DNA from: a virus
Direction: 5' to 3' (one strand)
IMG/VR virus record: IMGVR_UViG_3300025121_000009
Length of the DNA stretch: 39,605 nucleotides
Made by a program: the position numbers and the translations under genes. Numbering within the stretch: the first letter of the stretch is position 1; each line of letters begins with the position of its first letter. The notes below the pieces were generated by a model. That model searched no databases, was not told the DNA's origin, and was given only the letters and a program-made list of their open reading frames with translations. Below, piece after piece: positions 1 through 39,605 of the stretch.

Positions 1-127
1 TTTGATAGTTCTATTCTTCCCTTAATACTGTCCTTTGTTTCCTCTCTATCTTCCAAGTGTTTTAGGACACCCTCAAAGAAACCTCTTGCTCCATCTTTAC
101 ATCCTACTTCGTACCTCTCGGATAGTA
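1..127. repeat. Direct repeat copy A (127 nt identical to 1629-1755); nt 1-67 are also identical to 39539-39605
   Basis: Base-by-base comparison of tttgatagttctattcttccc...ctctcggatagta at both positions. Confidence 0.9.
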
Positions 128-3709: not shown

Positions 3710-3725
3710 TGATTAAATTAAACTA
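3710..3725 (-). promoter_or_regulatory. Conserved box TAGTTTAATTTAATCA, 25 nt (box start to ATG) upstream of gene 3332..3700
   Basis: 16-nt exact match with 4914-4929. Confidence 0.4.
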
Positions 3726-4904
3726 ACCTTTAACAACAGCTAGCGGCTTTAACTCTACCAGTATCTTTGTTAAATCTTTCTGGTTTTCCATAACAACATC
3801 TATATCCTTATATGCTTGAGGAGCTTCTCCAAAGTCTAGATTACCTTTTCTATCCTTTCCCCACCTACCGTATACAACCCCCTCCATAGATTTGTCTGCC
3901 TCTTCTAGAGTTATGTTTCTACTTGCTTCCATTCTACCCATTTTCCTACCCGCTCCGTGTGAACAACTCATAAAGGATTGAACATTTCCCAGTCCCTCTG
4001 TTATATAGGACTTAGTACCCATAGACCCTGGAATAATTCCAACCTCTCCTAGCCTTGCACTTGTAGCACCTTTTCTATGAACCCATACATTCCTACCCAT
4101 GTGGTTTTCCAGTCTTGCGTAGTTGTGTGCTATGTTAATTATCTCTTCTGCTTTATAATCGCCAAGAGTATCAGCTACAACACCCATGACCCTCTCCATC
4201 ATCAGTTTCCTATTCGCAAATGCAAAGTCCACACAATACTGCATTTCCTGTATATAATCTTGACCCTCTTTAGTGTCGGTAGGTAGATATGCTAAGTCTT
4301 GTTCTACAACATTTGGTATATACCACTTCTTAGCTAATTCAATAGCTTTTGCATTGTAGTAATCACACACTTGCTTACCAAGATTTCTACTACCAGAATG
4401 TATCATTATCCACAATTCACCCTCGCTACTTCTTTGTAGTTCTATAAAGTGATTACCACCACCAAGCGTTCCTATTTGTGTAAGGGCGTTGTCATACTCC
4501 TGAGCTACAACGACACCATTAGCACTTTTGCTATTACTAAATGGCATTAGGCTCTCCTCTTGTTTCTTCTGGTGGTGTGCAAACCCAACTGGTACAACCT
4601 TTCTTATTCCACCCAATGTTTCTTTTAATTGTTCCTGCGTAATATCCTCTGTTTTTATATGAGTATTAACTACACACATACCACAACCTATATCTACGCC
4701 CACCATATTAGGGCTAATAACATCAGCAAGAGCTACAACCCCACCAATAGGCATTCCGTACCCTTGATGACTATCTGGCATTACTGCAACCCACTTGTAT
4801 ACAAAAGGTAGGTTAGCAATATTTTTAATCTGCTCCATAGCACCATCCTCGATATCTTCTAACCATAGTTTTACCTGTATCTTTTCAGTATTTATTTCTT
4901 TCAT
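3723..4904 (-). CDS. rtcB: RtcB-family 3'-phosphate/5'-hydroxyl RNA ligase
   Basis: 393 aa carrying RtcB hallmark blocks: DSHQGYGMPIGGV, GGGNHFIELQ, IHSGSRNLG, AHNY, HRKGAT, IIPGSMG and SCSHGAGR. Confidence 0.9.
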   Translation of the reverse strand: MKEINTEKIQVKLWLEDIEDGAMEQIKNIANLPFVYKWVAVMPDSHQGYGMPIGGVVALADVISPNMVGVDIGCGMCVVNTHIKTEDITQEQLKETLGGIRKVVPVGFAHHQKKQEESLMPFSNSKSANGVVVAQEYDNALTQIGTLGGGNHFIELQRSSEGELWIMIHSGSRNLGKQVCDYYNAKAIELAKKWYIPNVVEQDLAYLPTDTKEGQDYIQEMQYCVDFAFANRKLMMERVMGVVADTLGDYKAEEIINIAHNYARLENHMGRNVWVHRKGATSARLGEVGIIPGSMGTKSYITEGLGNVQSFMSCSHGAGRKMGRMEASRNITLEEADKSMEGVVYGRWGKDRKGNLDFGEAPQAYKDIDVVMENQKDLTKILVELKPLAVVKG

Positions 4905-5211: not shown

Positions 5212-5310
5212 CAAATTATTAAAAGAACTGGTAGGTGCAACTGTTTTATTCTTAGTATTCAACAGAACCCAACAAATCTTTGTTGTAGCCTTTATTTAAC
5301 ACCCACCATA

Positions 5311-5382
5311 TTGCAGGGGTTAGAATTGAACTAACTACTCTTAGGCTATGAACCTAAAGTGCAACCGTTACACTTCCCTGCG
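5311..5382 (-). tRNA. tRNA with CAU anticodon (Met; initiator-like C1xA72 mismatch; Ile2 not excluded)
   Basis: A hand fold gives a full cloverleaf. Acceptor CGCAGGG/CCCTGCA with C1 opposite A72. D arm GTGT-AACGGTT-GCAC. Anticodon arm TTAGG-TTCATAG-CCTAA. Variable loop GAGTA. T arm GTTAG-TTCAATT-CTAAC. Discriminator A. No CCA is encoded. Confidence 0.8.
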
Positions 5383-5485
5383 ATGTTACCTGTGCCTTAG
5401 CTCCAGACTTAGCGTGGTGTCGTTTAAGAATTGCTATAATTAAATGTCCACATCCAGAACCAGGGTACAAGTAACACCCTAATTT

Positions 5486-12124: not shown

Positions 12125-12133
12125 ATTATACCA
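12125..12133 (-). promoter_or_regulatory. Extended -10 promoter TGGTATAAT (lysis genes)
   Basis: The minus strand reads GTGGTATAATATACTAT, 26 nt before the ATG at 12098. Confidence 0.55.
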
Positions 12134-19257: not shown

Positions 19258-19266
19258 ATTATACCA
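19258..19266 (-). promoter_or_regulatory. Extended -10 promoter TGGTATAAT
   Basis: The minus strand reads ATGGTATAATTATATATACACGAGGG and overlaps the stop region of the GT gene. Confidence 0.5.
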
Positions 19267-20482
19267 TTACAAGCGACCAACCCTTAGTGTTAGGCACTGT
19301 TGCCGACAGGTACACTTGATACAACTCTCTTATCCAGTCCTCAAGCTCCCACATCATGTTATCCATTAAGTATCTTTCTGCGTGTTTCCTAATCTTTTTA
19401 GGGTCTAGTGTGTCTACTAACTTAGCACATTGAACAAAATCATTAAGTGTATGGCACCTAAAACCTGTTACACCTTGTACTACTGTGTCTAAGAACGCAC
19501 CAAAGTCCGTTGTGAGTACAGGAGTACCACAAAGTTGGCTCTCTACATTAGTACCTCCAAAAGGCTCTAAATACCATGTTGGAATAAAACAAGCCTTAGC
19601 ATTAGCCATTAGCTCTGTTCTTTTATCTGGATCAACATACCCTACATACTCAACAAGTGGGTTACTTAAATCAATCTTCTCGTTATCGTCCATTTGTCCT
19701 GCAATTATTATCTTTGTATTAAGAGCTTTAGCTGTTTCTATGGCAGTTTGAACCCCTTTTCTATGAATAAGTCGCCCTATATAAAAGAAGTAATCCTGTT
19801 TTTTACTCTTAAAGGTAAAATCTTTTCCATCAAAGTAATTAGGAAATACTCGGTCATAATAAGCACCATTGGGTGTTTCTCCTGTTTGGGCGTTCTCTCG
19901 CCCATATGTGAAGTTCATTATATAGCTACTCTCAAAACCCCTGTAAACAGTTCTACCACTACTAAGCTGTGGTACACTTCCTCTATATCCAATACCAGGC
20001 TCCATTGTTAAAAATAGGTCTACTGCGTCAGCTATGGGCTTATCAAACCACCCTTGCATTATCATTAAAAAGTCGTCAGGTTGCTTGCGTTTGTTTATCT
20101 CTTTTATACTATTAGCTATAAACTTCTGGGTACACACAGTTGGTGCTTTATTTATATCGTGTCTAAACATACCCTCCCTCCAGTTATACCCTATGTCAAA
20201 CCTATTATCTCCGTCTCCCCATGCGTCTCTAATGTCCTGTAAGGAATGAGTTACAATGTACTCTGTACAAGGCACATCACCACCCTCTGCTCCGTATACA
20301 TAAACCTCATGACCTAAGTCCATAAGCATTTGAGCCATATGGTATTTTTTCATTGTGAAAGCACAGCCCATATACTTTCTTGACACTGGTAAATGACTTA
20401 AACCTACAATATGTACTCTAAACTTCTTTTGTCTTGGTATCATAGTGGTGTCCAAGAAAGACACCGATGAAAGCTTGTCCAT
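19259..20482 (-). CDS. GT-B fold glycosyltransferase (GT4/GT1-like)
   Basis: The C-terminal block EPFGGTNVESQLCGTPVLTTDFGAFLDTV matches the EX7E-type retaining GT signature. Confidence 0.7.
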   Translation of the reverse strand: MDKLSSVSFLDTTMIPRQKKFRVHIVGLSHLPVSRKYMGCAFTMKKYHMAQMLMDLGHEVYVYGAEGGDVPCTEYIVTHSLQDIRDAWGDGDNRFDIGYNWREGMFRHDINKAPTVCTQKFIANSIKEINKRKQPDDFLMIMQGWFDKPIADAVDLFLTMEPGIGYRGSVPQLSSGRTVYRGFESSYIMNFTYGRENAQTGETPNGAYYDRVFPNYFDGKDFTFKSKKQDYFFYIGRLIHRKGVQTAIETAKALNTKIIIAGQMDDNEKIDLSNPLVEYVGYVDPDKRTELMANAKACFIPTWYLEPFGGTNVESQLCGTPVLTTDFGAFLDTVVQGVTGFRCHTLNDFVQCAKLVDTLDPKKIRKHAERYLMDNMMWELEDWIRELYQVYLSATVPNTKGWSLVMV

Positions 20483-21038
20483 AAAGCCCTTGTGATGATA
20501 AATTAACTACTTGTCCACTTCCACCTAGCCACTTCTCAAGTTGTTCTTTAGTAAACGAGTGTGGGTGTCCATCATTTGTTCCTGTGTTGATCCATTCAAA
20601 TATTCTTACTTCTTTGGAAATTGCTAGTGCGTTTTTAATAATTCTTTTGGGATTTTGGGTGTGTTGGAGGCAATTATATATAAGTACAATGTCATATCTG
20701 GCGTTTGTTGGTATGTCTTCACCTTTAATTTTAAGGTACTTAATACCACTTGCTTTGTATCTCTCGCCCACCCATGCAGGATAATCACAAGGGTCTACAA
20801 CTGTTCCTTTAATATTTTCACATTTAAGAAGTATTGAAGAGGGTCCTCCCCCTATATCAAGCACACTTTCCCCATTCATGGGTATTCTGTACTGTGTATA
20901 CGCATTTGGAACTATTTTGAGTCCTAAGTACGGGGCTAGGCCTATTTGTTTAACATCCTCCCAGACAGTGTTAGCACAAGTGTTCCACCACTCTTTTTCC
21001 CATTGTTGTGCTTCTTGCCATTTAATCCTCGTGTTCAT
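20418..21038 (-). CDS. Class I SAM-dependent methyltransferase
   Basis: Motif I, VLDIGGGPSS, with a Rossmann-like alternation downstream. Confidence 0.65.
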   Translation of the reverse strand: MNTRIKWQEAQQWEKEWWNTCANTVWEDVKQIGLAPYLGLKIVPNAYTQYRIPMNGESVLDIGGGPSSILLKCENIKGTVVDPCDYPAWVGERYKASGIKYLKIKGEDIPTNARYDIVLIYNCLQHTQNPKRIIKNALAISKEVRIFEWINTGTNDGHPHSFTKEQLEKWLGGSGQVVNLSSQGLYGQAFIGVFLGHHYDTKTKEV

Positions 21039-21043
21039 AGTAT

Positions 21044-21052
21044 ATTATACCA
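21044..21052 (-). promoter_or_regulatory. Extended -10 promoter TGGTATAAT only 5 nt from the ATG (predicts a leaderless mRNA)
   Basis: The minus strand reads GTGGTATAATATACTATGAAC. Confidence 0.5.
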
Positions 21053-21238: not shown

Positions 21239-22837
21239 TTACGCATTTGATATTATCATTTGAACTACGTTTGTTGCTGCACCAGCCGATATTGTAAAAC
21301 TCCTTGTAGGACTACTCCAAGCCCCCCAAGTGTTAGAACCACCTGGGTCAGTTGCTCTAACTCTCCAATAGTATGTATCTCCTGCTGGTAGCGCACTCCC
21401 TGCTGGTATTGTATAGGTTATCTCGTTTCCACTAGGAAAAGGATTAGGAGAACCTGTACCAGACCAGTTAGCATCGTCATCGGTAGAGGAGAGGGTGTCT
21501 ATTAAAGGTATTGCGGTATCGCTGTTGTCAAAATAGTAAGTATCAACCCCACTATCGTGAGTAACCTCGACTTCAAATCTGTAGAATCTTACAATGTAAG
21601 TTGAAGAGTATAAGTACCCCTTAACTTCAAGATGACTAACTTTTTCCCAATTCCAACCACCCGTAGGAACAGCTAGTGTTGTATATGCACTCCAGTCTGT
21701 TCCTCCAGTGTCGTTTGTAAAACCAAGTTCCTCCACAAGCCCATCGGTATAATAATATGCGCGTGCCTCCTGCGCCTCGTTAAGTTCATACGAGAACATT
21801 CTGGCACGAACCTGTGTTATTGAGTCACCAGAGGTAGGAGCATTAGTCCCCTCTCCCTTAATATAATATTGGGAAGTGCTACCATTCTGCGTAGTCGTTT
21901 GTGCATAAGTTGATGTTGAACCATCAAAAGCCTGAGCATCATCTGTCCAAACACCATCTGGGTCATAGGGCGCACTCTGACCATTGAAAGTATTCACCGT
22001 ATCCACCTGTACCTCATATTCAACTTCACTAGCATTAGCATCTGTTCCTGTAAACTGGAAAGCTGGAGTTGTATCTGTAATAGTAGCTGCGTCTACAACA
22101 TTCGTTCCCAGAGTAACAGTAGGAGAGAACTCTGGTATTAAAGCAAAACCAACTACACCCCAGGGACACGATGTAATAGCATCCGTTCCACCGTTAATTG
22201 TTCCTGCACTAGCCATTACAGCAGTAACAAGTGCTATTGTTCCATCAGTACCAGCACTGTCTCCATAAGCTGCAACTGGGTATGTCCAATCCCCACCAGT
22301 TTCACCAGTCATAGCAGTTAGCTCAGTAGCTTGTGGATCGTCATTTGTTGCTATAAAGTTGAGAGCCAACCTACCAAGACCTAGTGTAGTAACACCTACA
22401 TCAGCAACAGAGTTGGAAGTAGCAGCTGCAGAAGCCACACCACCAGCAGTACCATTTTCTATAACTAGTGCTAAAGTACCACCCTTACTTACACCACTAA
22501 ACTCATACATTCTTGCAAAGACATCTTCACTTGTACTATTTCCACCAGTAAAGGTGGGTGCAGTTGTAGAAAGAGAACGCCCAATCCAAAGGTATTGTCT
22601 GGCTTCGTCTGAACCACCAACCGAATACTCCCCAATAGCAGTCCATGTGTTATCTGTACCTGCTAAGTTTTCAATATTAGTTGCACTGGTAAAAGTTACA
22701 GCACCATCAGTCGTTCCGTCTTGAACAATTTGTAAAATGATTATATTACCAGCAGCACTTGGAGCAGCACCAGTAATGGTAAACGCACCCCCTGCGTCTG
22801 TTGCACCTGTACTAGCTGTAATATACGAAATAGCCAT
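21239..22837 (-). CDS. Fibre or receptor-binding-like structural protein with a C-terminal Fn3/Ig-like segment
   Basis: Thr/Gly/Ala-rich and beta-rich. The C-terminal YYWRVRATDPGGSNTWGAWSSPTRSFTI is Fn3-like. It lies directly after the collagen-like fibre gene. Confidence 0.45.
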   Translation of the reverse strand: MAISYITASTGATDAGGAFTITGAAPSAAGNIIILQIVQDGTTDGAVTFTSATNIENLAGTDNTWTAIGEYSVGGSDEARQYLWIGRSLSTTAPTFTGGNSTSEDVFARMYEFSGVSKGGTLALVIENGTAGGVASAAATSNSVADVGVTTLGLGRLALNFIATNDDPQATELTAMTGETGGDWTYPVAAYGDSAGTDGTIALVTAVMASAGTINGGTDAITSCPWGVVGFALIPEFSPTVTLGTNVVDAATITDTTPAFQFTGTDANASEVEYEVQVDTVNTFNGQSAPYDPDGVWTDDAQAFDGSTSTYAQTTTQNGSTSQYYIKGEGTNAPTSGDSITQVRARMFSYELNEAQEARAYYYTDGLVEELGFTNDTGGTDWSAYTTLAVPTGGWNWEKVSHLEVKGYLYSSTYIVRFYRFEVEVTHDSGVDTYYFDNSDTAIPLIDTLSSTDDDANWSGTGSPNPFPSGNEITYTIPAGSALPAGDTYYWRVRATDPGGSNTWGAWSSPTRSFTISAGAATNVVQMIISNA

Positions 22838-22866: not shown

Positions 22867-26304
<3,438 letters not shown>

Positions 26305-27270: not shown

Positions 27271-27279
27271 ATTATACCA
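27271..27279 (-). promoter_or_regulatory. Extended -10 promoter TGGTATAAT
   Basis: The minus strand reads GTGGTATAATTAAGTATACGAGGAT. Confidence 0.5.
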
Positions 27280-27282
27280 CGA

Positions 27283-28461
27283 CTACAAAAGTTCCCCTTG
27301 AACATCTTTAGGTAAAATACTCTTATAAAGCTTGACTAAATGCCCCGCTTCAATATCAATATTCCTCTCTTTTTTAACCCACTCTTGCCCTGTTTTTACC
27401 TTTTCTTGCCAGTTTTTACCTGCCTTAATATCCTCTATCATAGCTCTCAACTTCACTTCAAACTCACCATTATCCTTAAAAGGATAGCTATTGTCCTCTG
27501 TAACGACCCTTGAGTAAGGCAACATATTCTTAACCACACAAGGAACACCCTGTGCTGTAAACTCTACCCACTTTATCTCACTCTTGTACTCGTTAAAAGG
27601 CTTACTTTCAAGTGGAATAATAGCACCATCAAGTCCCATGGTCTTAATCCTGTATGTATAGGCCCTAAATGGATACCAAGGATACCTTGTAACCCTATCT
27701 TCTATCTCTTTGAACTGATTTCTGTAATAACTTCCTAAAATATGTAGTGTAACCTCTGGATAATCCTTTAAAACCCTATTTAAAGGCTCTTTTATCTCTT
27801 CCCAGTCCCCCAAATGGCTCACACCACCCTGCCAACCTAGTCTAATCTCACCTTTTTTCTTATCTTTTGGTAAAAAAGTCCCCTCTGGGTACAAATCATA
27901 GTTAATAGCATTGTGAACAATACCAGTTTTAACCTCTTTACTACCAAACTGTGCATAGAAGTCTACAAGGTTCTCTACAGGTCCTGTAATGAGCTGAGAC
28001 GCTGCTAAAATATACAGTAGATTCATTTGTCCACTTAAATTAGTATACCTGTTAAACCCGTCTGTTAATCCTGTTACCCATACTGGTTTAAGATTGCCAT
28101 TAAATAAAGCCCAAGCGTCTTCTGTACCAAACTCTTTATAATGCTCACTCGTTGGCAATACCTCCATTGTATTATCATCATGGTCAAACACCATAGGCTT
28201 GTTAGGGTCTACCTCTTCTTTAATCAATTTGTAATACTGATAATCTCCTAGCCTACCAACAACAACATCAGCACTTTTTATCATTTCAATTTGCTTGTTA
28301 GCTTCCTCATGTCCGTCCATTAAGTAGCTTTTAACATCACTTCTCAACTGAAAGGCATCATCAAATTGCCTTATCCTATACCAACCACACCCACCGTCAT
28401 CAGCTGGTAAAAATAATACTTGTAAAGGTCTTTTCCCTTTCGTCTTGGATTTATGACTCAT
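27283..28461 (-). CDS. Putative glycosyltransferase embedded in the head module (392 aa from the SD-led ATG; the track start is 28509)
   Basis: The ATG at 28461 is preceded by TTAAGCGAGGATACT, the same RBS string as the methyltransferase at 36716. The N-terminus VLFLPADDGGCGWYRIRQ resembles GT-B N-terminal nucleotide-sugar folds. Weak call. Confidence 0.45.
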   Translation of the reverse strand: MSHKSKTKGKRPLQVLFLPADDGGCGWYRIRQFDDAFQLRSDVKSYLMDGHEEANKQIEMIKSADVVVGRLGDYQYYKLIKEEVDPNKPMVFDHDDNTMEVLPTSEHYKEFGTEDAWALFNGNLKPVWVTGLTDGFNRYTNLSGQMNLLYILAASQLITGPVENLVDFYAQFGSKEVKTGIVHNAINYDLYPEGTFLPKDKKKGEIRLGWQGGVSHLGDWEEIKEPLNRVLKDYPEVTLHILGSYYRNQFKEIEDRVTRYPWYPFRAYTYRIKTMGLDGAIIPLESKPFNEYKSEIKWVEFTAQGVPCVVKNMLPYSRVVTEDNSYPFKDNGEFEVKLRAMIEDIKAGKNWQEKVKTGQEWVKKERNIDIEAGHLVKLYKSILPKDVQGELL

Positions 28462-28885: not shown

Positions 28886-28894
28886 ATTATACCA
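28886..28894 (-). promoter_or_regulatory. Extended -10 promoter TGGTATAAT 5 nt from the ATG (predicts a leaderless mRNA)
   Basis: The minus strand reads ATGGTATAATATGATATGGAA. Confidence 0.5.
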
Positions 28895-28901
28895 TTACAA
28901 C

Positions 28902-28922
28902 AAAAAAGGGGCCTAAGCCCCC
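28902..28922 (-). terminator. Intrinsic terminator after the major capsid gene
   Basis: The minus strand reads GGGGC-TTAG-GCCCC followed by TTTTTT. Confidence 0.7.
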
Positions 28923-28943
28923 TCTCTGCTACTTGAATAGTAA

Positions 28944-29819
28944 TTAGCTTACTAATCCAGTCATCTTACCGTTCATAGCTTCTGCTCTTGCTTCAAGAGT
29001 TAGCTCTCCGATAAGGACACCATTCTTAGCGTCTGCTGTCTCTGGTGTATCTTTCTTGCTGACAGGTCTTAACTGTGCAACTGCCCACATATCTTTCTGC
29101 AATACTGCTAATTCTGTTGCAGCTATTTGGCTATCTCCCTCTACTGAGAGTCTTCCAAATGGTGATTGATATACTAATGTTTCGTTAGTATAAGTCGTGT
29201 TGCCATCGTTAAATGTTCTCTTTGCTGCCATTAAAGCCGCAATAGCGTTTACCTGTGTGTAAGAACCTAGTAACCAATCTGGTCTACCACCGTTCTCATA
29301 ACAACTTTGAATTAAGCTGTTAAGTTCTGCTGCTGCTAATGCTCTACCAGTACCAGTTCCAGTTGAAATATTGGTCGTAATGAATGCCATTATTCCCTTT
29401 AATCTTCTACCAGTTCCTGATGCTCCTGAGTTTGCAGTTCCGTTGATAAGAGCTTTCTCAATGTCTCTACCAATAGCTTCTAGTCCTACTTTTACTCTAA
29501 ATGCGTACTCGTCTTCCATTCCTGCTGGATCTACAGCCTGTTGAGTCTGTGATACCTGGAATGTCTTACTGAATATCTGAGTATAGTTAGATAGTCTGCT
29601 TGGTGCTGTCAATGCTCCGTATGAGAAACTTGCTCCCTCAACCTGTGCATTTACTGCTGCGGCATCCTGTGCGTATGTGCTCCACTCATGAATTGAGTTT
29701 CTTGCACTGACTTTTCTTAGCTTTGCGTAAGCTGGTGTAGTCATATCACCAATTTTTGTTAATACATCTGTCAAATCTTCATGATTTGTAGATGAATCGT
29801 ATGTCTGATAAACAGCCAT
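28944..29819 (-). CDS. Major capsid protein
   Basis: 291 aa, following the scaffold gene and followed by a strong terminator. The N-terminal pattern NHEDLTDVLTKI..TPAYAKL..ARNSIHEW resembles HK97-fold (SU10-type) capsid proteins. Confidence 0.6.
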   Translation of the reverse strand: MAVYQTYDSSTNHEDLTDVLTKIGDMTTPAYAKLRKVSARNSIHEWSTYAQDAAAVNAQVEGASFSYGALTAPSRLSNYTQIFSKTFQVSQTQQAVDPAGMEDEYAFRVKVGLEAIGRDIEKALINGTANSGASGTGRRLKGIMAFITTNISTGTGTGRALAAAELNSLIQSCYENGGRPDWLLGSYTQVNAIAALMAAKRTFNDGNTTYTNETLVYQSPFGRLSVEGDSQIAATELAVLQKDMWAVAQLRPVSKKDTPETADAKNGVLIGELTLEARAEAMNGKMTGLVS

Positions 29820-34416: not shown

Positions 34417-34484
34417 ATTATACAATAGAAGCCTTCGCTATTGACGGGTACTACCCTATATGGCTTCTATAACATATTATACCA
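34417..34484 (-). promoter_or_regulatory. Promoter, hairpin, promoter unit upstream of the packaging genes
   Basis: TGGTATAAT (34476-34484), then a 9-bp hairpin ATAGAAGCC/GGCTTCTAT (34425-34470), then TTGTATAAT (34417-34425). Confidence 0.45.
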
Positions 34485-34739
34485 CTATTTTAACCTGTCT
34501 AATTCTTTTATTATTTTTGTTCTCTTTTTCTTTAATACCTCTAGCTTATCCTCAGTTGTTTGTGATCTGTTTCTTTTAGCTTGTAGACTATTGATTATAT
34601 TATGTCTTTCAAGGTTAATTTGGGCCAGTTGTTTTTTAAGCCTATCTCTTTTACCAAATATTCTATCCCAGTTTTCTTCATAGTTTTTAACATCTTGCTT
34701 GGTTCTGGTTGTCGTTGGTTTACTTATATCACTACTCAT
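34485..34739 (-). CDS. Basic coiled-coil protein (84 aa from the ATG; the track start at 34754 is TTG)
   Basis: ATGA overlap with the upstream stop at 34736-34739. Confidence 0.45.
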   Translation of the reverse strand: MSSDISKPTTTRTKQDVKNYEENWDRIFGKRDRLKKQLAQINLERHNIINSLQAKRNRSQTTEDKLEVLKKKRTKIIKELDRLK

Positions 34740-35539
34740 AGTTGTGTAGCCCAAATGGCAATATCAATTAAATCTAAACTAGGTCTCTGTATATGCTCGT
34801 CCATGTCAATTTTCTTTTGCCTTGGTAGTTTATCTCCTATTTTTAAGTATGTGTTGTTCATTGGCATTCTGTTTGGCTCTCCACTTGCCTTAAAAGCCTC
34901 GTGCTCGTCTACTACATACACTGGTATTCCCATAAGCCTCGCAAAACTCTCAAAGGTAGACGGATTAGGAGTAAACACCATGTCGTAACTAGGCAACTTC
35001 TCTTTAATGTCTGCTAAAATAGTATCACTCTCTACATTGTTAAACCACTTACCCTTGTCTGTTGTAATATCTCCTGACTTGTCAATAAGTTTTACAGTCC
35101 AGTCTAGCTCTGGGTATGCCTTAACTAACTGGTCAAAGAGTACCTGATTATAAATAGACATATCTTTCACCCAGTGCAATGCTACAAACAACGCCTTGTT
35201 GCCTGTGTGCTTTGTCTTTTTAATGTCGTCATAAATTGGATTACCTGTTATTAGTATTTTACTCATTGGCACACCCTTTCTTACTAAAGACATAAAACTT
35301 CCCTGCCCTAATGCTAAATACCCATCAGCCATAGGCTCCCTGTTGTTTAATTCATAATCATACAAAGCACCAAAGCCATGTTCAAACACAACTACTTTCT
35401 TTCCTAGCCCTTTAAGTGTCCTCACATGTTGAGCAAACGGAAAGTCTGCCCACATAAACACCACCTCTGCATCTACTAACTCACTATTACTTGGCTCCCA
35501 TTGCCAAAAATTATGATGGTTGTATACAAGATATTTCAT
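34736..35539 (-). CDS. Hypothetical protein in the sugar cluster (possible glycosyltransferase)
   Basis: 267 aa from the ATG at 35539, which forms an ATGA overlap with the upstream stop. The alternating beta/alpha pattern is Rossmann-like. Assigned from context only. Confidence 0.3.
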   Translation of the reverse strand: MKYLVYNHHNFWQWEPSNSELVDAEVVFMWADFPFAQHVRTLKGLGKKVVVFEHGFGALYDYELNNREPMADGYLALGQGSFMSLVRKGVPMSKILITGNPIYDDIKKTKHTGNKALFVALHWVKDMSIYNQVLFDQLVKAYPELDWTVKLIDKSGDITTDKGKWFNNVESDTILADIKEKLPSYDMVFTPNPSTFESFARLMGIPVYVVDEHEAFKASGEPNRMPMNNTYLKIGDKLPRQKKIDMDEHIQRPSLDLIDIAIWATQL

Positions 35540-36147
35540 ATTAGTTTCCATTTCTCTGGAATTAAATTAGCTATTGATCGCCTATGCTCTAGGTCTCCCT
35601 CGTTGTAAACTGCACCTATTTTCTTATTCCTTTCCTTAACCAAATCAACATCAATGTCTCTTAGATGTAGCATAATTAAATCTGCATCAAGCAGGGTAGT
35701 ACCCTTTACACGATGATTACTTAAATACACTTGAGGCTTTGTTATTATCACACACTTGTCGTACATTTCGTCTCTACTCCAATGAGTCCTTTGCGATAGT
35801 ATAGGTTTACTTAAATCTATTGGTTTATCCCCTACCATTTGTAGTACATTATAACCAACACACCTTACTGCACTCTCCTTAACCCTATCCAAATACTCTC
35901 CTAAATCCTTATACTTCTCTGGATTGGCTACCACTATCTCGTCTATATCAGCAAACAAGATTAAGTCGTACTCCTTAAACAACTCTTCTTGGAGAGAATT
36001 AAGCAAAGAATAAGTGGCACCCCAGTCTCTTCTTAAAATATCCCCTATCTTAACTATTTTAATGTCTAAATACTTTGAGTAATAGTCCTTCCAAATACTG
36101 GTCATGTCTGAGTGGTCGTGTTCAAATGTTACTGCTATTCTTTTCAT
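35536..36147 (-). CDS. Putative GT-A-like glycosyltransferase
   Basis: The DxD-like motif LFADIDEIVV follows a short N-terminal beta-alpha region. ATGA overlap with the methyltransferase gene. Confidence 0.4.
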   Translation of the reverse strand: MKRIAVTFEHDHSDMTSIWKDYYSKYLDIKIVKIGDILRRDWGATYSLLNSLQEELFKEYDLILFADIDEIVVANPEKYKDLGEYLDRVKESAVRCVGYNVLQMVGDKPIDLSKPILSQRTHWSRDEMYDKCVIITKPQVYLSNHRVKGTTLLDADLIMLHLRDIDVDLVKERNKKIGAVYNEGDLEHRRSIANLIPEKWKLI

Positions 36148-36716
36148 TTTTGAATAATACCTAGTCCGTTTGAGTTAAGTCGCTCACTAAATGTCCATTC
36201 CGGATGTTGCTCTTGTAACTCTTTGAAATACTGCTTAACACCAAACCCTCTCTCTGTTACCTGAGTATCATGAAGTATAATACGCCCACCCTTTGGTACG
36301 AACTTACTCCAGTTCTCAAAGTCTTCTTTAATGTCCTCATAAAAATGTCTTCCATCAATATGAAGTAAGTCTATAGGTTTATTCCAACCTTTAAGTGCCT
36401 CGTTAAATGTCTTTTTGATTACTTTTACATTAGGGTACTGGTTGAGAGTTTCCATTGCTATGTCTTCTATCTCATTACCAAACTTCCCACTGTGTTCGTC
36501 TCCTATAAAGTGATCCACACCATACAGCTTTGTTGACGACCCGTTATCTAAACAACTCTCTGCCATTGTAGCAAGCGAGTGTCCTAAATATACCCCAAGT
36601 TCAACGATTACCTTTGGCTTCCAAACGGGTATCTGGTTGTAAATGTAAAGTATATGCCCTTCCCATGCAGACTTATATTTTCCTAAGTGTTCGTACCATT
36701 TAAACTCTTCAAACAT
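36144..36716 (-). CDS. CmcI/TylF-like class I SAM-dependent (sugar O-)methyltransferase
   Basis: Motifs VELGVYLGHSLATMAE, LLHIDGRH and GGRIILHD. The ATG at 36716 is preceded by TTAAGCGAGGATAGTG. Confidence 0.6.
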   Translation of the reverse strand: MFEEFKWYEHLGKYKSAWEGHILYIYNQIPVWKPKVIVELGVYLGHSLATMAESCLDNGSSTKLYGVDHFIGDEHSGKFGNEIEDIAMETLNQYPNVKVIKKTFNEALKGWNKPIDLLHIDGRHFYEDIKEDFENWSKFVPKGGRIILHDTQVTERGFGVKQYFKELQEQHPEWTFSERLNSNGLGIIQK

Positions 36717-36745
36717 CACTATCCTCGCTTAATTTATCTATATAC

Positions 36746-36754
36746 ATTATACCA
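36746..36754 (-). promoter_or_regulatory. Extended -10 promoter TGGTATAAT
   Basis: The minus strand reads AATGGTATAATGTATATAG. Confidence 0.5.
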
Positions 36755-36756
36755 TT

Positions 36757-37113
36757 TCACATGACAGGGAACACATAATCAGCCCTTAAATCGTCTAGTG
36801 CTTCCTTGAGTTCCTTGTACCACTCGTGGTTAATTTCACCCTTGTTTAGGATACGCTCTGAAACTACAATACACTCTGATAGTTCACAAATGGGTAATTT
36901 TTCCCCTAACCAATAACTGTTGATTAACTCTGGCCAGTTGATTTTCCTACATCTGTAGATACAAGCCCTGTGTGGGTCAAATGTTAAATCGTCTGGGTAA
37001 ATATCGTGCCACATCAAGTACGCTATTAGCCCTATACTAGATGTAACAAAGTCGGCTTCTCCTTTATTCATGGCAGTAATAAAGTAAATTATATTCAATA
37101 TACCCCCACTCAA
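36757..37113 (-). CDS. Hypothetical protein (start uncertain: TTG at 37113 or ATG at 37068)
   Basis: ORF between the rmlB-like gene and the methyltransferase gene. No motif. Confidence 0.4.
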   Translation of the reverse strand: MSGGILNIIYFITAMNKGEADFVTSSIGLIAYLMWHDIYPDDLTFDPHRACIYRCRKINWPELINSYWLGEKLPICELSECIVVSERILNKGEINHEWYKELKEALDDLRADYVFPVM

Positions 37114-37122
37114 GTTACGATG

Positions 37123-38124
37123 TCAATTACCTAACCAGTGTGGATGGTTCATTGTCCATTTAACGGTCTTTTCTAAACTCTCCTCAAACCTAAACGGTGC
37201 TTCCCAACCCAAATCCTTTAGCTTTTTACCACTCATCGCATACCTACGGTCGTGTCCTGGGCGATTCAAATGGAAATCTTGATATACAAAATCTCTACCC
37301 TCTTTAACATCTTCAACACCCATTGCCTTGGCTATTAACTTAAACATTTGTAAATTGTCCATTTCAATATCCCCCACAATATGCACCTTATCATTTACTA
37401 TACTATGCTGTAATAAAAACAAAGTAGCGTCTGCTGCGTTTCTGGCATGTAACCAATGCCTCTTACCTACATTACCCGGTGTTCCATGTATTGTCATTGG
37501 TTGGTTGTTATAAAGAAACTGCATTGACTTTGGTATGAGCTTCTCAGGGTCTTGTCTTTCTCCAAATATATTCATGGTGTTGGTTATTAGGTACGGTAAT
37601 CCATAAGTAACACCATACGCCTGTACTATCATTTCCCCTGCTGCTTTTCCTGCACTATATGGATTACTTGGATGTAGCTTATCTTCCTCTGTAAAATCAT
37701 AATTCTCTGGTGCTGGTCCGTAAACTTCATCCGTTGAAAAGTACAAAAACTTCTTTAAATTAGGTTGCATGGTTCTTGCATACTCAAGCATTTGAACTGT
37801 ACTCTGGGCGTTATTACAAAACACTTCAACTGGTTCTTTAATACTTGTGTCCACATGACTACATGCTGCTAAGTGTGCTATGTAATCAACCTCTCCTATG
37901 TGTTTATGAACTGTTGCCAAACTATCGTTTAGATCGTGTCTAACTATTACAGTTCTCTCTCTCCACTCTGGGTGGTCAAGTAAGGTCTCCTCTATCCTAT
38001 TTAAGTCTCCTGCCCTATTCATTTTAACCAAACCAATAGCTGTCCAGTCTGTTGTCTTCATAACATGCTCCCACAAATGAGACCCTACAAACCCTGACAT
38101 ACCCGAAATTAGTAATTTAACCAT
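37123..38124 (-). CDS. rmlB: dTDP-glucose 4,6-dehydratase-like SDR (RmlB/RfbB type)
   Basis: GMSGFVGSHL (GxxGxxG), STDEVYG and YSAGKAAGE (YxxxK). Confidence 0.8.
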   Translation of the reverse strand: MVKLLISGMSGFVGSHLWEHVMKTTDWTAIGLVKMNRAGDLNRIEETLLDHPEWRERTVIVRHDLNDSLATVHKHIGEVDYIAHLAACSHVDTSIKEPVEVFCNNAQSTVQMLEYARTMQPNLKKFLYFSTDEVYGPAPENYDFTEEDKLHPSNPYSAGKAAGEMIVQAYGVTYGLPYLITNTMNIFGERQDPEKLIPKSMQFLYNNQPMTIHGTPGNVGKRHWLHARNAADATLFLLQHSIVNDKVHIVGDIEMDNLQMFKLIAKAMGVEDVKEGRDFVYQDFHLNRPGHDRRYAMSGKKLKDLGWEAPFRFEESLEKTVKWTMNHPHWLGN

Positions 38125-39484: not shown

Positions 39485-39605
39485 TCTTCCTCTTTTAATA
39501 GTTTATATAAGTCTATTTTATAAACCTCTAAAAGAACCTTTGATAGTTCTATTCTTCCCTTAATACTGTCCTTTGTTTCCTCTCTATCTTCCAAGTGTTT
39601 TAGGA
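39481..39605 (-). CDS. C-terminal fragment of the junction-spanning modular gene (continues from 713..1)
   Basis: Reads ...SKVLLEVYKIDLYKLLKEEE then TGA, in frame with the 1..713 ORF once the 67-nt overlap is collapsed. The TGA overlaps the ATG of the next gene. Confidence 0.6.
   Translation of the reverse strand, partial: LKHLEDREETKDSIKGRIELSKVLLEVYKIDLYKLLKEEE
39539..39605. repeat. Terminal overlap: 67 nt identical to positions 1-67
   Basis: Direct comparison. Consistent with a circular assembly or terminal redundancy. Confidence 0.9.

Follow-up and report, generated by a model that had tools for sequence, protein, structure and literature searches.

What use a phage could make of sugar-tailoring genes lodged among its packaging, head and fibre genes is the question raised by the stretch of DNA analysed here (39,605 nucleotides; the window), which is the complete genome (~39.5 kb) of a phage that is uncultivated and has a head of the SU10 type. 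The source phage has a low GC content and was recovered from a groundwater metagenome. Its genes include four of the glycosyltransferase type, two to three for methyltransferases and one for a deoxysugar-forming dehydratase, all situated within the packaging/morphogenesis region and on the same strand as the structural genes. Neither virion glycosylation encoded by a virus nor nucleotide-sugar genes borne by a phage are new in kind; a custom sugar coat for the virus's own particle has been demonstrated to date in only a few other viruses. Virion glycosylation is the reading best supported by the circumstantial, guilt-by-association evidence, and we hold it with moderate confidence. We propose that the genes, at three loci, form a system for building glycans. 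Its most likely role is to glycosylate and O-methylate virion proteins of the phage itself, in the cytoplasm of the host and at the time of late gene expression.

A swappable cassette upstream of the terminase genes

Locus 1 (34485-38124, minus strand) is a tailoring cassette just upstream of the terminase genes. The initial annotation had described 34736-38124 as a co-directional block of five genes, and all five ORFs are indeed found on the minus strand at the coordinates given below. It had also considered the block to be translationally coupled by ATGA overlaps. Such start/stop overlaps are present at the junctions between the methyltransferase and GT-A genes (36144-36147), between the GT-A gene and the gene for a 267-aa protein (start ATG at 35539), and between the latter and the gene for an 84-aa protein (start ATG at 34739), but the dehydratase (SDR)/u118 and u118/methyltransferase junctions are without overlap. 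The SDR gene overlaps the upstream HNH gene by 8 nt.

The SDR gene (37123..38124, minus strand) encodes an RmlB-like NDP-hexose 4,6-dehydratase of the extended SDR type (333 residues), which has a G8xxG11xxG14 motif and the signatures reported earlier, S130-TDEVYG (T131-D132-E133) and Y156xxxK160. It matches PF16363 (3.4e-54), aligns over its full length with the solved RmlB structure 8du1 (3.7e-49), and also matches PDB entry 6vlo (9.7e-40), which we take to be Mimivirus R141. The match to TIGR01181 (2.4e-69) scores 233.8 bits, below the cut-off of 365.1. The role of deoxysugar entry enzyme holds, but with the score under the RmlB equivalog threshold, specificity for dTDP and rhamnose as the end-product are no more than putative. 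The enzyme would convert host NDP-glucose to NDP-4-keto-6-deoxyglucose, and host enzymes would be needed for the further steps to a 6-deoxyhexose; no RmlA, RmlC or RmlD was found in a search of the window that covered practically every ORF of 100 residues or more and several shorter ones, in agreement with the incomplete pathway noted before.

The dehydratase is a dispensable, accessory member of the cassette and lies outside the core of the system in which it had been placed, because a near-identical relative (~95% identity) has lost the gene by a clean in-frame deletion (L001/L002) and many other relatives are without it: it is present in about 8 of 29 related loci and missing from at least 10 of them. 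Since it was lost while the other genes were kept, a deoxysugar is inessential to whatever role the system has.

Downstream of it lies a gene for a conserved protein of 104 residues (36757..37071, minus strand; 118 residues from a TTG at 37113, hence u118), a constant companion of the cassette. Searches of Pfam, NCBIfam, PHROG and PDB profiles gave no match for this protein, which has 31 invariant residues among 18 related loci (49-71% identity). The next gene (36144..36716, minus strand) encodes a class I SAM methyltransferase of 190 residues belonging to Methyltransf_24 (PF13578, 8.7e-23), with an ExGxxxG motif at residue 40, a DGRH motif at residue 122, and a match to PDB entry 6g7d over 54 residues (9.6e-10). 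Its description as CmcI/TylF-like is borne out narrowly for CmcI (PF04989, 23.6 against a cut-off of 23.2) but not for TylF, which scores under the cut-off.

The putative DxD-type glycosyltransferase of 203 residues (35536..36147, minus strand) has only weak matches in Pfam. Its AlphaFold2 model (pLDDT 91.4) resembles GT-A enzymes, as the earlier assignment had anticipated, with Foldseek matches to GalS1 of family GT92 (7e-5), SunS (8.6e-4) and a capsid glycosyltransferase of PBCV-1 (2p72, 1e-3), and residues D69, E70 and H161 are invariant in 30 homologues. This gene occupies the variable slot of the cassette, as other glycosyltransferase or methyltransferase genes take its place in relatives; the block is thus a swappable cassette. 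Three relatives have C5-cytosine DNA methylase genes inserted into their cassettes.

The 267-aa (271) protein (34736..35539, minus strand), one of the two proteins originally listed as unknown, is modelled with a compact GT-B fold (pLDDT 94.3), while the 104-aa protein stays without assignment. Foldseek matches include GT-B transferases and UDP-GlcNAc 2-epimerases in the PDB (about 3e-6) as well as viral GT-B proteins, so that we regard it as a putative nucleotide-sugar-dependent transferase; it could instead be a 2-epimerase-like or TagF-like enzyme. It is encoded by the most conserved gene of the cassette and has 24 invariant residues, including H12, E57-H58-G59 and T199. The sugar genes of the window are real, and this protein alone is represented by more than 120 metagenomic clusters at 90% identity. 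The gene for the 84-aa basic coiled-coil protein (34485..34739, minus strand), translationally coupled to it by the ATGA overlap, adjoins the GT-B gene in most relatives, and the N-terminal peptide of the protein is found fused to the GT-A homologues P0131 and P0141. In the proposed system, locus 1 would contribute the GT-B-fold transferase, the 104-aa partner, the Methyltransf_24 enzyme and whichever enzyme fills the variable slot, here the GT-A transferase, with the dehydratase as an option.

The sporadic occurrence of the dehydratase, including its deletion in a near-identical relative, and the homing-type HNH genes and DNA methylases that adjoin the cassette in relatives would also suit selfish passengers or auxiliary metabolic genes of the ordinary sort without a dedicated phage function, boosting or perturbing host nucleotide-sugar pools, with some copies perhaps decaying. 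We find this improbable, as the core genes show no damage and are conserved across large distances, translational coupling is kept, and the invariant catalytic-type residues are retained.

Glycosyltransferases in the head and fibre modules

Three further sugar genes had been recognized outside the cassette, and they prove to encode two GT4-type transferases and one SAM methyltransferase.

Locus 2 (27283..28461, minus strand), flanked by the capsid genes and the adaptor gene, encodes a divergent GT4-type (GT-B) glycosyltransferase of 392 residues, GT392. It matches phrog_7162 (2.1e-18), and its assignment to GT4 was made through homologues, as 72 of 88 distant homologues match the Pfam group 1 glycosyltransferases; a profile search of the PDB gave BshA (2e-13), PglA and TarM. 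Of 80 viral loci, down to 24% identity, 72 have the gene for the family member downstream of that for an SU10-type major capsid protein (MCP), and 61 have it upstream of the adaptor gene. A head protein is the probable acceptor in our proposal. In distant relatives the gap between the MCP and glycosyltransferase genes holds genes for GT2, WbqC, SAM methyltransferase, NDP-sugar dehydratase/epimerase, C-methyltransferase, acetyltransferase and deacetylase proteins (compare MW202801).

Locus 3, among the tail and fibre genes, consists of a GT4 glycosyltransferase of 407 residues (19259..20482, minus strand; PF00534, 1.6e-18; phrog_3408, 1.7e-78; PDB 7fg9, 1.5e-16) paired with a class I SAM methyltransferase of 206 residues, MT206 (20418..21038, minus strand; PF13489, 3.9e-7; phrog_3603, 1.6e-47). 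The two co-occur in 28 of 77 loci, including otherwise unrelated phages. The candidate glycan acceptor is a fibre of 1145 residues (22867..26304, minus strand) with collagen-like (PF01391, 1.4e-57) and beta-helix (Beta_helix, 2.5e-15) domains; 95 of its 170 Gly-X-Y triplets have Thr at Y, and the Thr residues of these Gly-X-Thr repeats would be the probable attachment sites. Collagen-like ORFs in which Thr makes up about 60% of the Y positions were found in 23 of 72 distant loci of this GT4 type compared with 1 of 45 control-family loci. The association derives from few independent lineages, and as the distant homologues are essentially one subfamily, the Fisher p-value makes it look stronger than it is.

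A promoter-like motif common to sugar and structural genes

An extended -10 promoter-like motif, TGGTATAAT, is located between u118 and the methyltransferase gene, upstream of the latter (36746..36754, minus strand). The window has seven exact copies where 0.87 would be expected; all are on the coding strand, and they have common flanks TTGTAGTGGTATAATATAnTAT. They precede the methyltransferase part of the cassette, the probable small-terminase gene, p133 with GT392, the adaptor gene, MT206 with its GT4 partner, p491 and a peptidase gene, so that sugar modules and structural genes have the motif in common.

The enzymes might instead act at the cytoplasmic face on glycans of the host envelope, altering precursors of O-antigen, capsule or wall polymers and thereby blocking superinfection by competing phages or keeping progeny off debris; variable cassettes would then follow variable host glycans. 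The cassette is hypervariable in close relatives, WbqC, Polysacc_synt_2 and RmlB-like genes are typical of O-antigen and capsule loci, and the depolymerase-like beta-helix domain of the fibre implies a polysaccharide receptor. Moreover, PglA, TarM, HepE, an LPS glycosyltransferase and TagF are among the structural and profile neighbours, and precursors that are lipid-linked or belong to wall polymers also serve as substrates for soluble enzymes of the GT4 and GT-A types. We nevertheless judge this explanation possible rather than probable. The scanned ORFs of the window include neither an integrase nor a lysogeny module, none of the sugar proteins has a predicted membrane segment, and no membrane-embedded Gtr-, Oac- or flippase-like protein accompanies them. 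The fixed position of one glycosyltransferase between capsid and adaptor over deep divergence is hard to square with a host-directed moron, and the modules have the promoter-like motif of the structural genes. The virion, and possibly its Thr-rich fibre, had been named as the target from the outset; the GT392 synteny, the collagen enrichment, the shared motif and the lack of predicted membrane segments lend this comparative support. What the analysis establishes is the gene content, the folds and motifs, the synteny, how variable the cassette is and that its dehydratase can be dispensed with; the acceptors, the donor sugars, a methylation of the sugar and any advantage from a coat are our inferences.

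Comparison with known systems

Glycosyltransferases are also known from phage clusters for sugar hypermodification of DNA, namely the T4 a/b-GT, ThyS-GT and MT-5mYOX-GT clusters (10.1101/2023.12.21.572611; PMC13326640), which likewise have GT-A/GT-B enzymes, and at times nucleotide-sugar enzymes, near packaging genes. DNA-glycosylating phages have been reported with such clusters by the terminase and structural genes (10.1101/2023.12.21.572611), a site just upstream of the terminase suits modification before packaging, and the C5-cytosine methylases within three relatives' cassettes would fit as well. Still, an anti-restriction addition of sugars to the phage DNA appears very improbable. The precursor-base enzyme is missing: neither the scanned ORFs of the window nor the variable cassettes include a thymidylate-synthase (ThyS) homologue, a TET/JBP (5mYOX) dioxygenase or a phage DNA polymerase. 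The T4 glucosyltransferases are outside the top 50 structural matches, and the collagen-like association and capsid-adaptor synteny favour protein acceptors.

For virion glycosylation, one of the closest parallels is in mycobacteriophages. Che8, Corndog and Myrna are said to encode glycosyltransferases, and in some cases O-methyltransferases, thought to coat their own capsid and tail proteins in the cytoplasm; their virion glycosylation was reportedly described by Freeman et al. (2023, Cell Host Microbe 31:1216). The present phage encodes both enzyme types and would use them on its virion proteins in a like manner, but it represents an unrelated lineage with an SU10-type head, one of its glycosyltransferase genes is fixed between capsid and adaptor, and it has in addition a 4,6-dehydratase for nucleotide sugars and, ahead of the terminase, a swappable cassette. 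The sole sequence link to glycosyltransferases of cultured actinophages is at 22-25% identity.

Giant viruses likewise combine RmlB-type 4,6-dehydratases with GT-A/GT-B genes and use the enzymes on capsid or fibre proteins. Examples are PBCV-1 A64R and the UDP-glucose 4,6-dehydratases and rhamnose pathway of chloroviruses and Mimivirus; there is a review of this glycan machinery (PMC9614988). In contrast, the present genome is that of a 39.5-kb tailed phage of prokaryotic hosts, and its pathway is incomplete as there is no epimerase/reductase partner.

BclA of Bacillus anthracis is a collagen-like Gly-X-Thr exosporium protein whose Thr residues bear O-linked oligosaccharides that contain rhamnose and are partly O-methylated. 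Deoxysugar genes (rml operon) are linked to the collagen gene in this cellular spore system, which has a complete RmlACBD set, whereas the phage has the RmlB-like step only and glycosylation of its fibre is suggested by gene association.

Among cultured phages, the nearest homologue of the GT4 on the fibre side, at 36-38% identity, is gp016 of cyanomyovirus S-CAM7 / ACG-2014f (NC_031927), a T4-like phage of ~216 kb that differs in having a 2OG-Fe(II) oxygenase beside this gene, whose function is putative from sequence. The gp016 gene directly follows two genes for collagen-like Gly-X-Thr proteins and precedes a tail-fibre gene.

The head-module glycosyltransferase

The initial annotation had placed three further sugar-related genes inside the virion modules, and all three are real: a clear GT4 glycosyltransferase at 19259-20482 (407 residues, GT4_407), a class I methyltransferase at 20418-21038 (206 residues, MT206) and a probable, divergent GT4 at 27283-28461 (392 residues, GT392) between the capsid and adaptor genes. 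GT392 itself has no Pfam match. Among 88 homologues (22–42% identity) sampled from 4443 matches at E ≤ 1e-3, however, 72 match the glycosyltransferase group 1 domains PF13692/PF00534, and the family profile finds BshA (2e-13), PglA and TarM. Comparison by hhalign of the GT392 family with the fibre-side GT4 and with the family of a 267-residue cassette protein gave no significant match.

The gene order around GT392 was analysed in 80 IMG/VR loci holding a family member, with identities from 99% down to 24%. An SU10-type capsid gene lies upstream on the same strand in 72 of these loci, and an adaptor gene lies downstream in 61. At identities of at least 34% the order MCP-p133-GT-adaptor, in which p133 is the gene between the major capsid protein (MCP) gene and the glycosyltransferase (GT) gene, is nearly invariant, the sole exception having its adaptor about 6 kb downstream. 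At 24–33% identity the glycosyltransferase usually remains no more than a few hundred bases away from the adaptor, and the capsid gene is followed by an insert of 1–6 kb. The inserts consist largely of genes for GT2, WbqC, SAM-methyltransferase, NDP-sugar epimerase/dehydratase, Polysacc_synt_2, sugar C-methyltransferase, hexapeptide acetyltransferase, PIG-L deacetylase and cytidylyltransferase. The same capsid-insert-GT pattern is seen in a deposited Manatee Spring podovirus. A full-text literature search found no description of this capsid-GT-adaptor synteny with its glycan islands. Eukaryotic-type protein kinase domains (Pkinase, best 1.8e-10) were observed in three ORFs that lie among the sugar genes between capsid and glycosyltransferase in the islands of distant relatives (loci L156-L194).

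The fibre-side methyltransferase-glycosyltransferase pair

The MT206 gene ends at 20418 and the first ATG of GT4_407 is at 20482, giving a 65-nt overlap that seems real, since the 13 N-terminal residues of GT4_407 are conserved in relatives. The pair is a mobile module. It occurs in 28 of 77 loci, including phages otherwise dissimilar to the window, and is 67–91% identical in relatives with a capsid that is only 51% identical. In one such phage (L035/L147, IMGVR_UViG_3300010236_000005) the identity to the window is 83% for the GT4, 67% for MT206, 51% for the capsid and 40% for the head-module glycosyltransferase, which suggests horizontal exchange of the module between diverged phages.

Homologues of GT4_407 from cultured phages were found only in the Synechococcus myoviruses S-CAM7 and ACG-2014f, where the GT4 gene comes right after genes for two 'hypothetical' proteins, which are collagen-like and hold 204 and 47 Gly-X-Y triplets. 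Within the GT4_407 family, 23 of 72 distant loci encode collagen-like ORFs, nearly always on the same strand, in which Thr takes about 60% of the Y positions, compared to 1 of 45 loci of another glycosyltransferase family used as control (40.7 versus 1.4 ORFs per Mb; Fisher p = 4e-5, a value that overstates independence as the GT4_407 homologues are essentially one subfamily). The fibre of the window itself, a collagen-like and beta-helix protein of 1145 residues encoded on the minus strand (22867-26304), has 170 Gly-X-Y triplets with Thr at Y in 95 of them. No description of the GT4-collagen association was found in a full-text literature search.

The terminase-proximal cassette

The block at 34736-38124 is a cassette, and all five ORFs of the deoxysugar cluster that had been described there are present. 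The proposed ATGA coupling of the block holds for the methyltransferase/GT-A and GT-A/GT-B junctions and for that between GT-B and an 84-residue protein (34485-34739). The dehydratase gene and the HNH gene upstream of it share 8 nt.

The dehydratase (333 residues) is an extended short-chain dehydrogenase/reductase (SDR) with the NAD-binding motif G8xxG11xxG14, S130-T131-D132-E133-VYG and Y156-SAG-K160. Its residues 3-333 are collinear with residues 11-352 of 8du1 (E 3.7e-49; next 2hun, 6bi4 and 1g1a), and its TDE and YxxxK motifs align to the same motifs in 8du1. Matches were obtained to PF16363 (3.4e-54) and TIGR01181 (2.4e-69), but the TIGR01181 score, at 233.8 bits, falls well short of the equivalog cut-off of 365.1. 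On phage contigs the protein is part of a clade of its own, with 71–81% identity inside the clade and less than 60% outside it. The earlier identification as RmlB-type is thus borne out in NAD-binding and catalytic motifs and end-to-end alignment but not at equivalog level, and in view of the score and the distinct clade we name the protein an RmlB-like NDP-hexose 4,6-dehydratase and assign no nucleotide. As the initial annotation had noted for RmlA, RmlC and RmlD, the ORFs scanned in the window yielded neither a nucleotidyltransferase nor a cupin epimerase nor an RmlD-type reductase. An RmlC-like role of the 104-residue cassette protein was considered and dropped, as it gave no cupin or dTDP_sugar_isom signal.

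The 190-residue methyltransferase is a class I SAM enzyme of the Methyltransf_24 family (PF13578, 8.7e-23; 81.6 bits versus a threshold of 26.3) with the motifs E40-LGVYLG and D122-GRH. The CmcI/TylF-like assignment made for it is only marginal for CmcI (PF04989, 23.6 versus 23.2) and falls below threshold for TylF (PF05711, 21.5 versus 23). The best PDB match, 6g7d (9.6e-10), aligns over only 54 residues, and the PHROG label for the family is 'DNA methyltransferase'.

The two following proteins were characterized mainly from predicted structures. The 203-residue protein scores below threshold as a GT92/GT2-type sequence (GT92, 17.3 versus 23; Glyco_tranf_2_4, 15.5 versus 27.5). Its AlphaFold (AF2) model (pLDDT 91.4) matches GalS1 (7e-5, TM 0.51–0.53), SunS, 2p72 (the PBCV-1 capsid glycosyltransferase) and STIV A197 in Foldseek. 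The predicted GT-A fold and the D67-I-D69-E70 motif, of which D69 and E70 are invariant, like H161, across 30 sequences, agree with the DxD-type GT-A candidate seen earlier. The 267-residue protein, whose true start is the ATG at 35539, was one of two proteins initially left without a function; its model (AF2, pLDDT 94.3) predicts a compact GT-B fold with two Rossmann-like domains. All 91 PDB matches of this model at E ≤ 1e-3 are GT-B transferases, 2-epimerases or TagF, with viral GT-B proteins also found, and the top matches mix GT4-type transferases with UDP-GlcNAc 2-epimerases. An invariant H12 after strand 1 and S198-T-F-E-S ... G-I-P would be transferase-like features. The other such protein, of 104 residues, is conserved in relatives and matched nothing in family or PDB-profile searches. 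Single-sequence and profile searches of the PDB gave nothing significant for the GT-A, 267-residue and 104-residue proteins or for a small GT392 profile (A3). Every sugar enzyme of the window belongs to a known superfamily.

A peptide at the N-terminus of the 84-residue protein (SKPTTTRTKQD..NWDRIFGK) also appears fused to the N-terminus of GT-A homologues (P0131, P0141), and a variant of it to a methyltransferase (L029 4004-5083). It may have arisen as a linker in recombination, or may serve several proteins in targeting or interaction.

Variability of the cassette

In related phages the cassette has the frame [104-aa]-[Methyltransf_24]-[variable slot]-[GT-B]-[84-aa]-terminase. The slot is taken by the GT-A gene in the window and, in relatives, by a TOD1/MUCI70-like glycosyltransferase, a P-loop-methyltransferase fusion, a Polysacc_synt_2 dehydratase, or a Methyltransf_11 protein that either stands by itself or is joined to a C-terminal region akin to a 235-residue, weakly GT2-like protein.

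The dehydratase is dispensable. It is present in about eight and absent in at least ten of 29 IMG/VR relatives, and positions 37202-38106 are exactly missing from two contigs of about 95% identity (L001 and L002; L001 8301-8350). The first six and last approximately 25 codons remain there in frame, indicating a deletion and not an insertion into the window lineage. Passenger or generic metabolic genes would explain this sporadic occurrence, but would leave the conserved, coupled core of the cassette unexplained, and we consider this reading of the sugar genes improbable. The HNH gene beside the dehydratase is only 69% identical in relatives of about 95% identity, while its flanks are 94–99% identical.

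Some relatives also carry insertions of C5 DNA methylase and homing-type HNH genes in the cassette. Inserts in or beside it (L003 5435-6598, L010 6460-7650, L013 1607-3307, L018 554-1045, L021 2852-4153) comprise C5-cytosine DNA methylases, a NUMOD4/HNH homing endonuclease and, in L021, a 433-residue ORF with methyltransferase-like motifs recognized by eye only. The region upstream of the terminase is a general insertion hotspot. Glycosylation of DNA as the function of the sugar genes is very improbable and was set aside, as its defining precursor enzyme (a ThyS homologue or 5mYOX/TET) was found neither in the scanned window ORFs nor in the cassettes of relatives.

The hypervariability of the cassette and its O-antigen-like gene repertoire would also fit remodelling of the host envelope. 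Such remodelling appears unlikely, though it is the strongest of the alternatives, since one glycosyltransferase is fixed inside the head operon, no lysogeny genes were found among the scanned ORFs and no membrane components among the sugar proteins. The scanned window ORFs gave no sign of an integrase, a repressor family, a DNA polymerase, a thymidylate-synthase homologue or a TET-like dioxygenase, and the membrane-embedded transferase or flippase of the temperate Gtr/Oac systems has no counterpart among the window sugar proteins. Classical serotype conversion of this type was set aside, as no membrane protein was found among the sugar proteins and no integrase among the scanned ORFs.

A shared promoter-like motif

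The nonamer TGGTATAAT is present in seven exact copies, all on the coding (minus) strand (12125-12133, 19258-19266, 21044-21052, 27271-27279, 28886-28894, 34476-34484 and 36746-36754), compared to 0.87 expected. Each copy lies just upstream of a gene start, namely those of the methyltransferase cassette, the probable small-terminase gene, p133 with GT392, the adaptor gene, MT206 with GT4_407, p491 and the M23 peptidase gene. The sites with their flanks share the consensus TTGTAGTGGTATAATATAnTAT and are followed by strong, GAGG-type ribosome-binding sites. Judging from sequence, they are probably late or middle phage promoters of the extended -10 type. Between the end of the capsid gene, which it directly follows, and the promoter-like motif lies a G+C-rich hairpin with a T-run behind it (GGGGGCTTAGGCCCCTTTTTT, 28895-28940), probably a terminator that sets the level of the capsid transcript.

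Proposed role of the sugar genes

None of the sugar proteins has a hydrophobic segment (maximum 19-residue hydropathy at most 1.3), and they are therefore expected to act in the cytoplasm, the site of virion assembly. Taken together with the synteny of GT392, the mobile MT206-GT4 pair, the collagen association and the shared motif, this makes glycosylation of the phage's own virion, the target favoured in the initial annotation, the best-supported reading, to which we give an even chance. We propose that GT392 would glycosylate a head protein, and that the MT206-GT4 pair would act on Thr residues of the collagen-like fibre. The terminase-proximal cassette would elaborate the glycan further and add O-methyl groups, presumably to sugar and not to protein or DNA. 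The optional dehydratase would divert host NDP-glucose to a 4-keto-6-deoxy intermediate that host enzymes would need to complete. The support for glycans attached to capsid, tail or fibre proteins comes from gene order, promoter-like sites and the collagen association. Folds, motifs, synteny, variability and the dehydratase deletion are thus observations, and the donor sugars, the acceptors, methylation of the sugar and any benefit of the coat are inferred from them.

The Bacillus BclA/rml arrangement is a close functional analogue, as is the glycan machinery of giant viruses, which likewise combines an RmlB-type dehydratase with capsid glycosyltransferases. Mycobacteriophage virion glycosylation of the Che8 type (cited in PMC11256854) is also among the closest analogues. 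More speculatively, and in our view less likely than not, the window may represent a large and widespread group of uncultivated phages with SU10-type heads, in which a hard-wired head glycosyltransferase and hypervariable glycan islands (between capsid and adaptor, and upstream of the terminase) coat capsids and collagen-like Gly-X-Thr fibres with O-methylated (deoxy)hexoses that differ between lineages. If so, the system would be without precedent outside actinobacteriophages and giant viruses, and would provide part of its own nucleotide-sugar chemistry.

If the virion is indeed the target, glycan coats would be common and diversifying in environmental phages and not a curiosity of actinophages. 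This would bear on adsorption, particle stability, grazing and immune recognition, and on how 'auxiliary' sugar genes in viromes are read. The capsid-GT-adaptor synteny and the GT4-collagen link also provide candidate enzyme-acceptor pairs that can be cloned without a cultured host.

Genome context

An exact 67-bp direct repeat at the ends of the window (1-67 = 39539-39605) indicates that the genome, of about 39.5 kb, is complete and either circularly closed or terminally redundant. All long ORFs are on the minus strand, including those for the large terminase, SU10/P22-type portal, SU10-type major capsid protein (28944-29819) and SU10-type adaptor. LysM and M23 proteins for lysis or ejection, a Rad52/Erf annealing protein, a DnaD-like organiser and an exonuclease are also encoded. 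A megablast search of the block against GenBank phages gave no match and the window capsid is at most 35% identical to that of any deposited phage, so the phage has no annotated close relative among these.

The window contig recurs in groundwater metagenomes (L201-L204), and the nearest named cellular homologues of the dehydratase (P0386, P0413; about 46–49% identity) come from MAGs of CPR (Pacebacteria) and DPANN (Woesearchaeota), together a weak hint about the host community only. A host and prophage search of genome contigs gave a single MAG contig of 1.8 kb (Bacteriovoracaceae bin), which does not suffice to assign a host.

A 532-residue protein of the tail/fibre region (21239-22837) has a sub-threshold match to the N-terminal Ig domain of Rha78A alpha-L-rhamnosidases (7.2e-5, 23.4 versus 27.4 bits), which is intriguing beside a possible deoxyhexose pathway. 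Finally, an RtcB RNA ligase (3723-4904; phrog_1075, 3.5e-125) and the single tRNA gene of the window, for tRNA-Met (5310-5383), may serve to counter tRNA-cleaving defences of the host.
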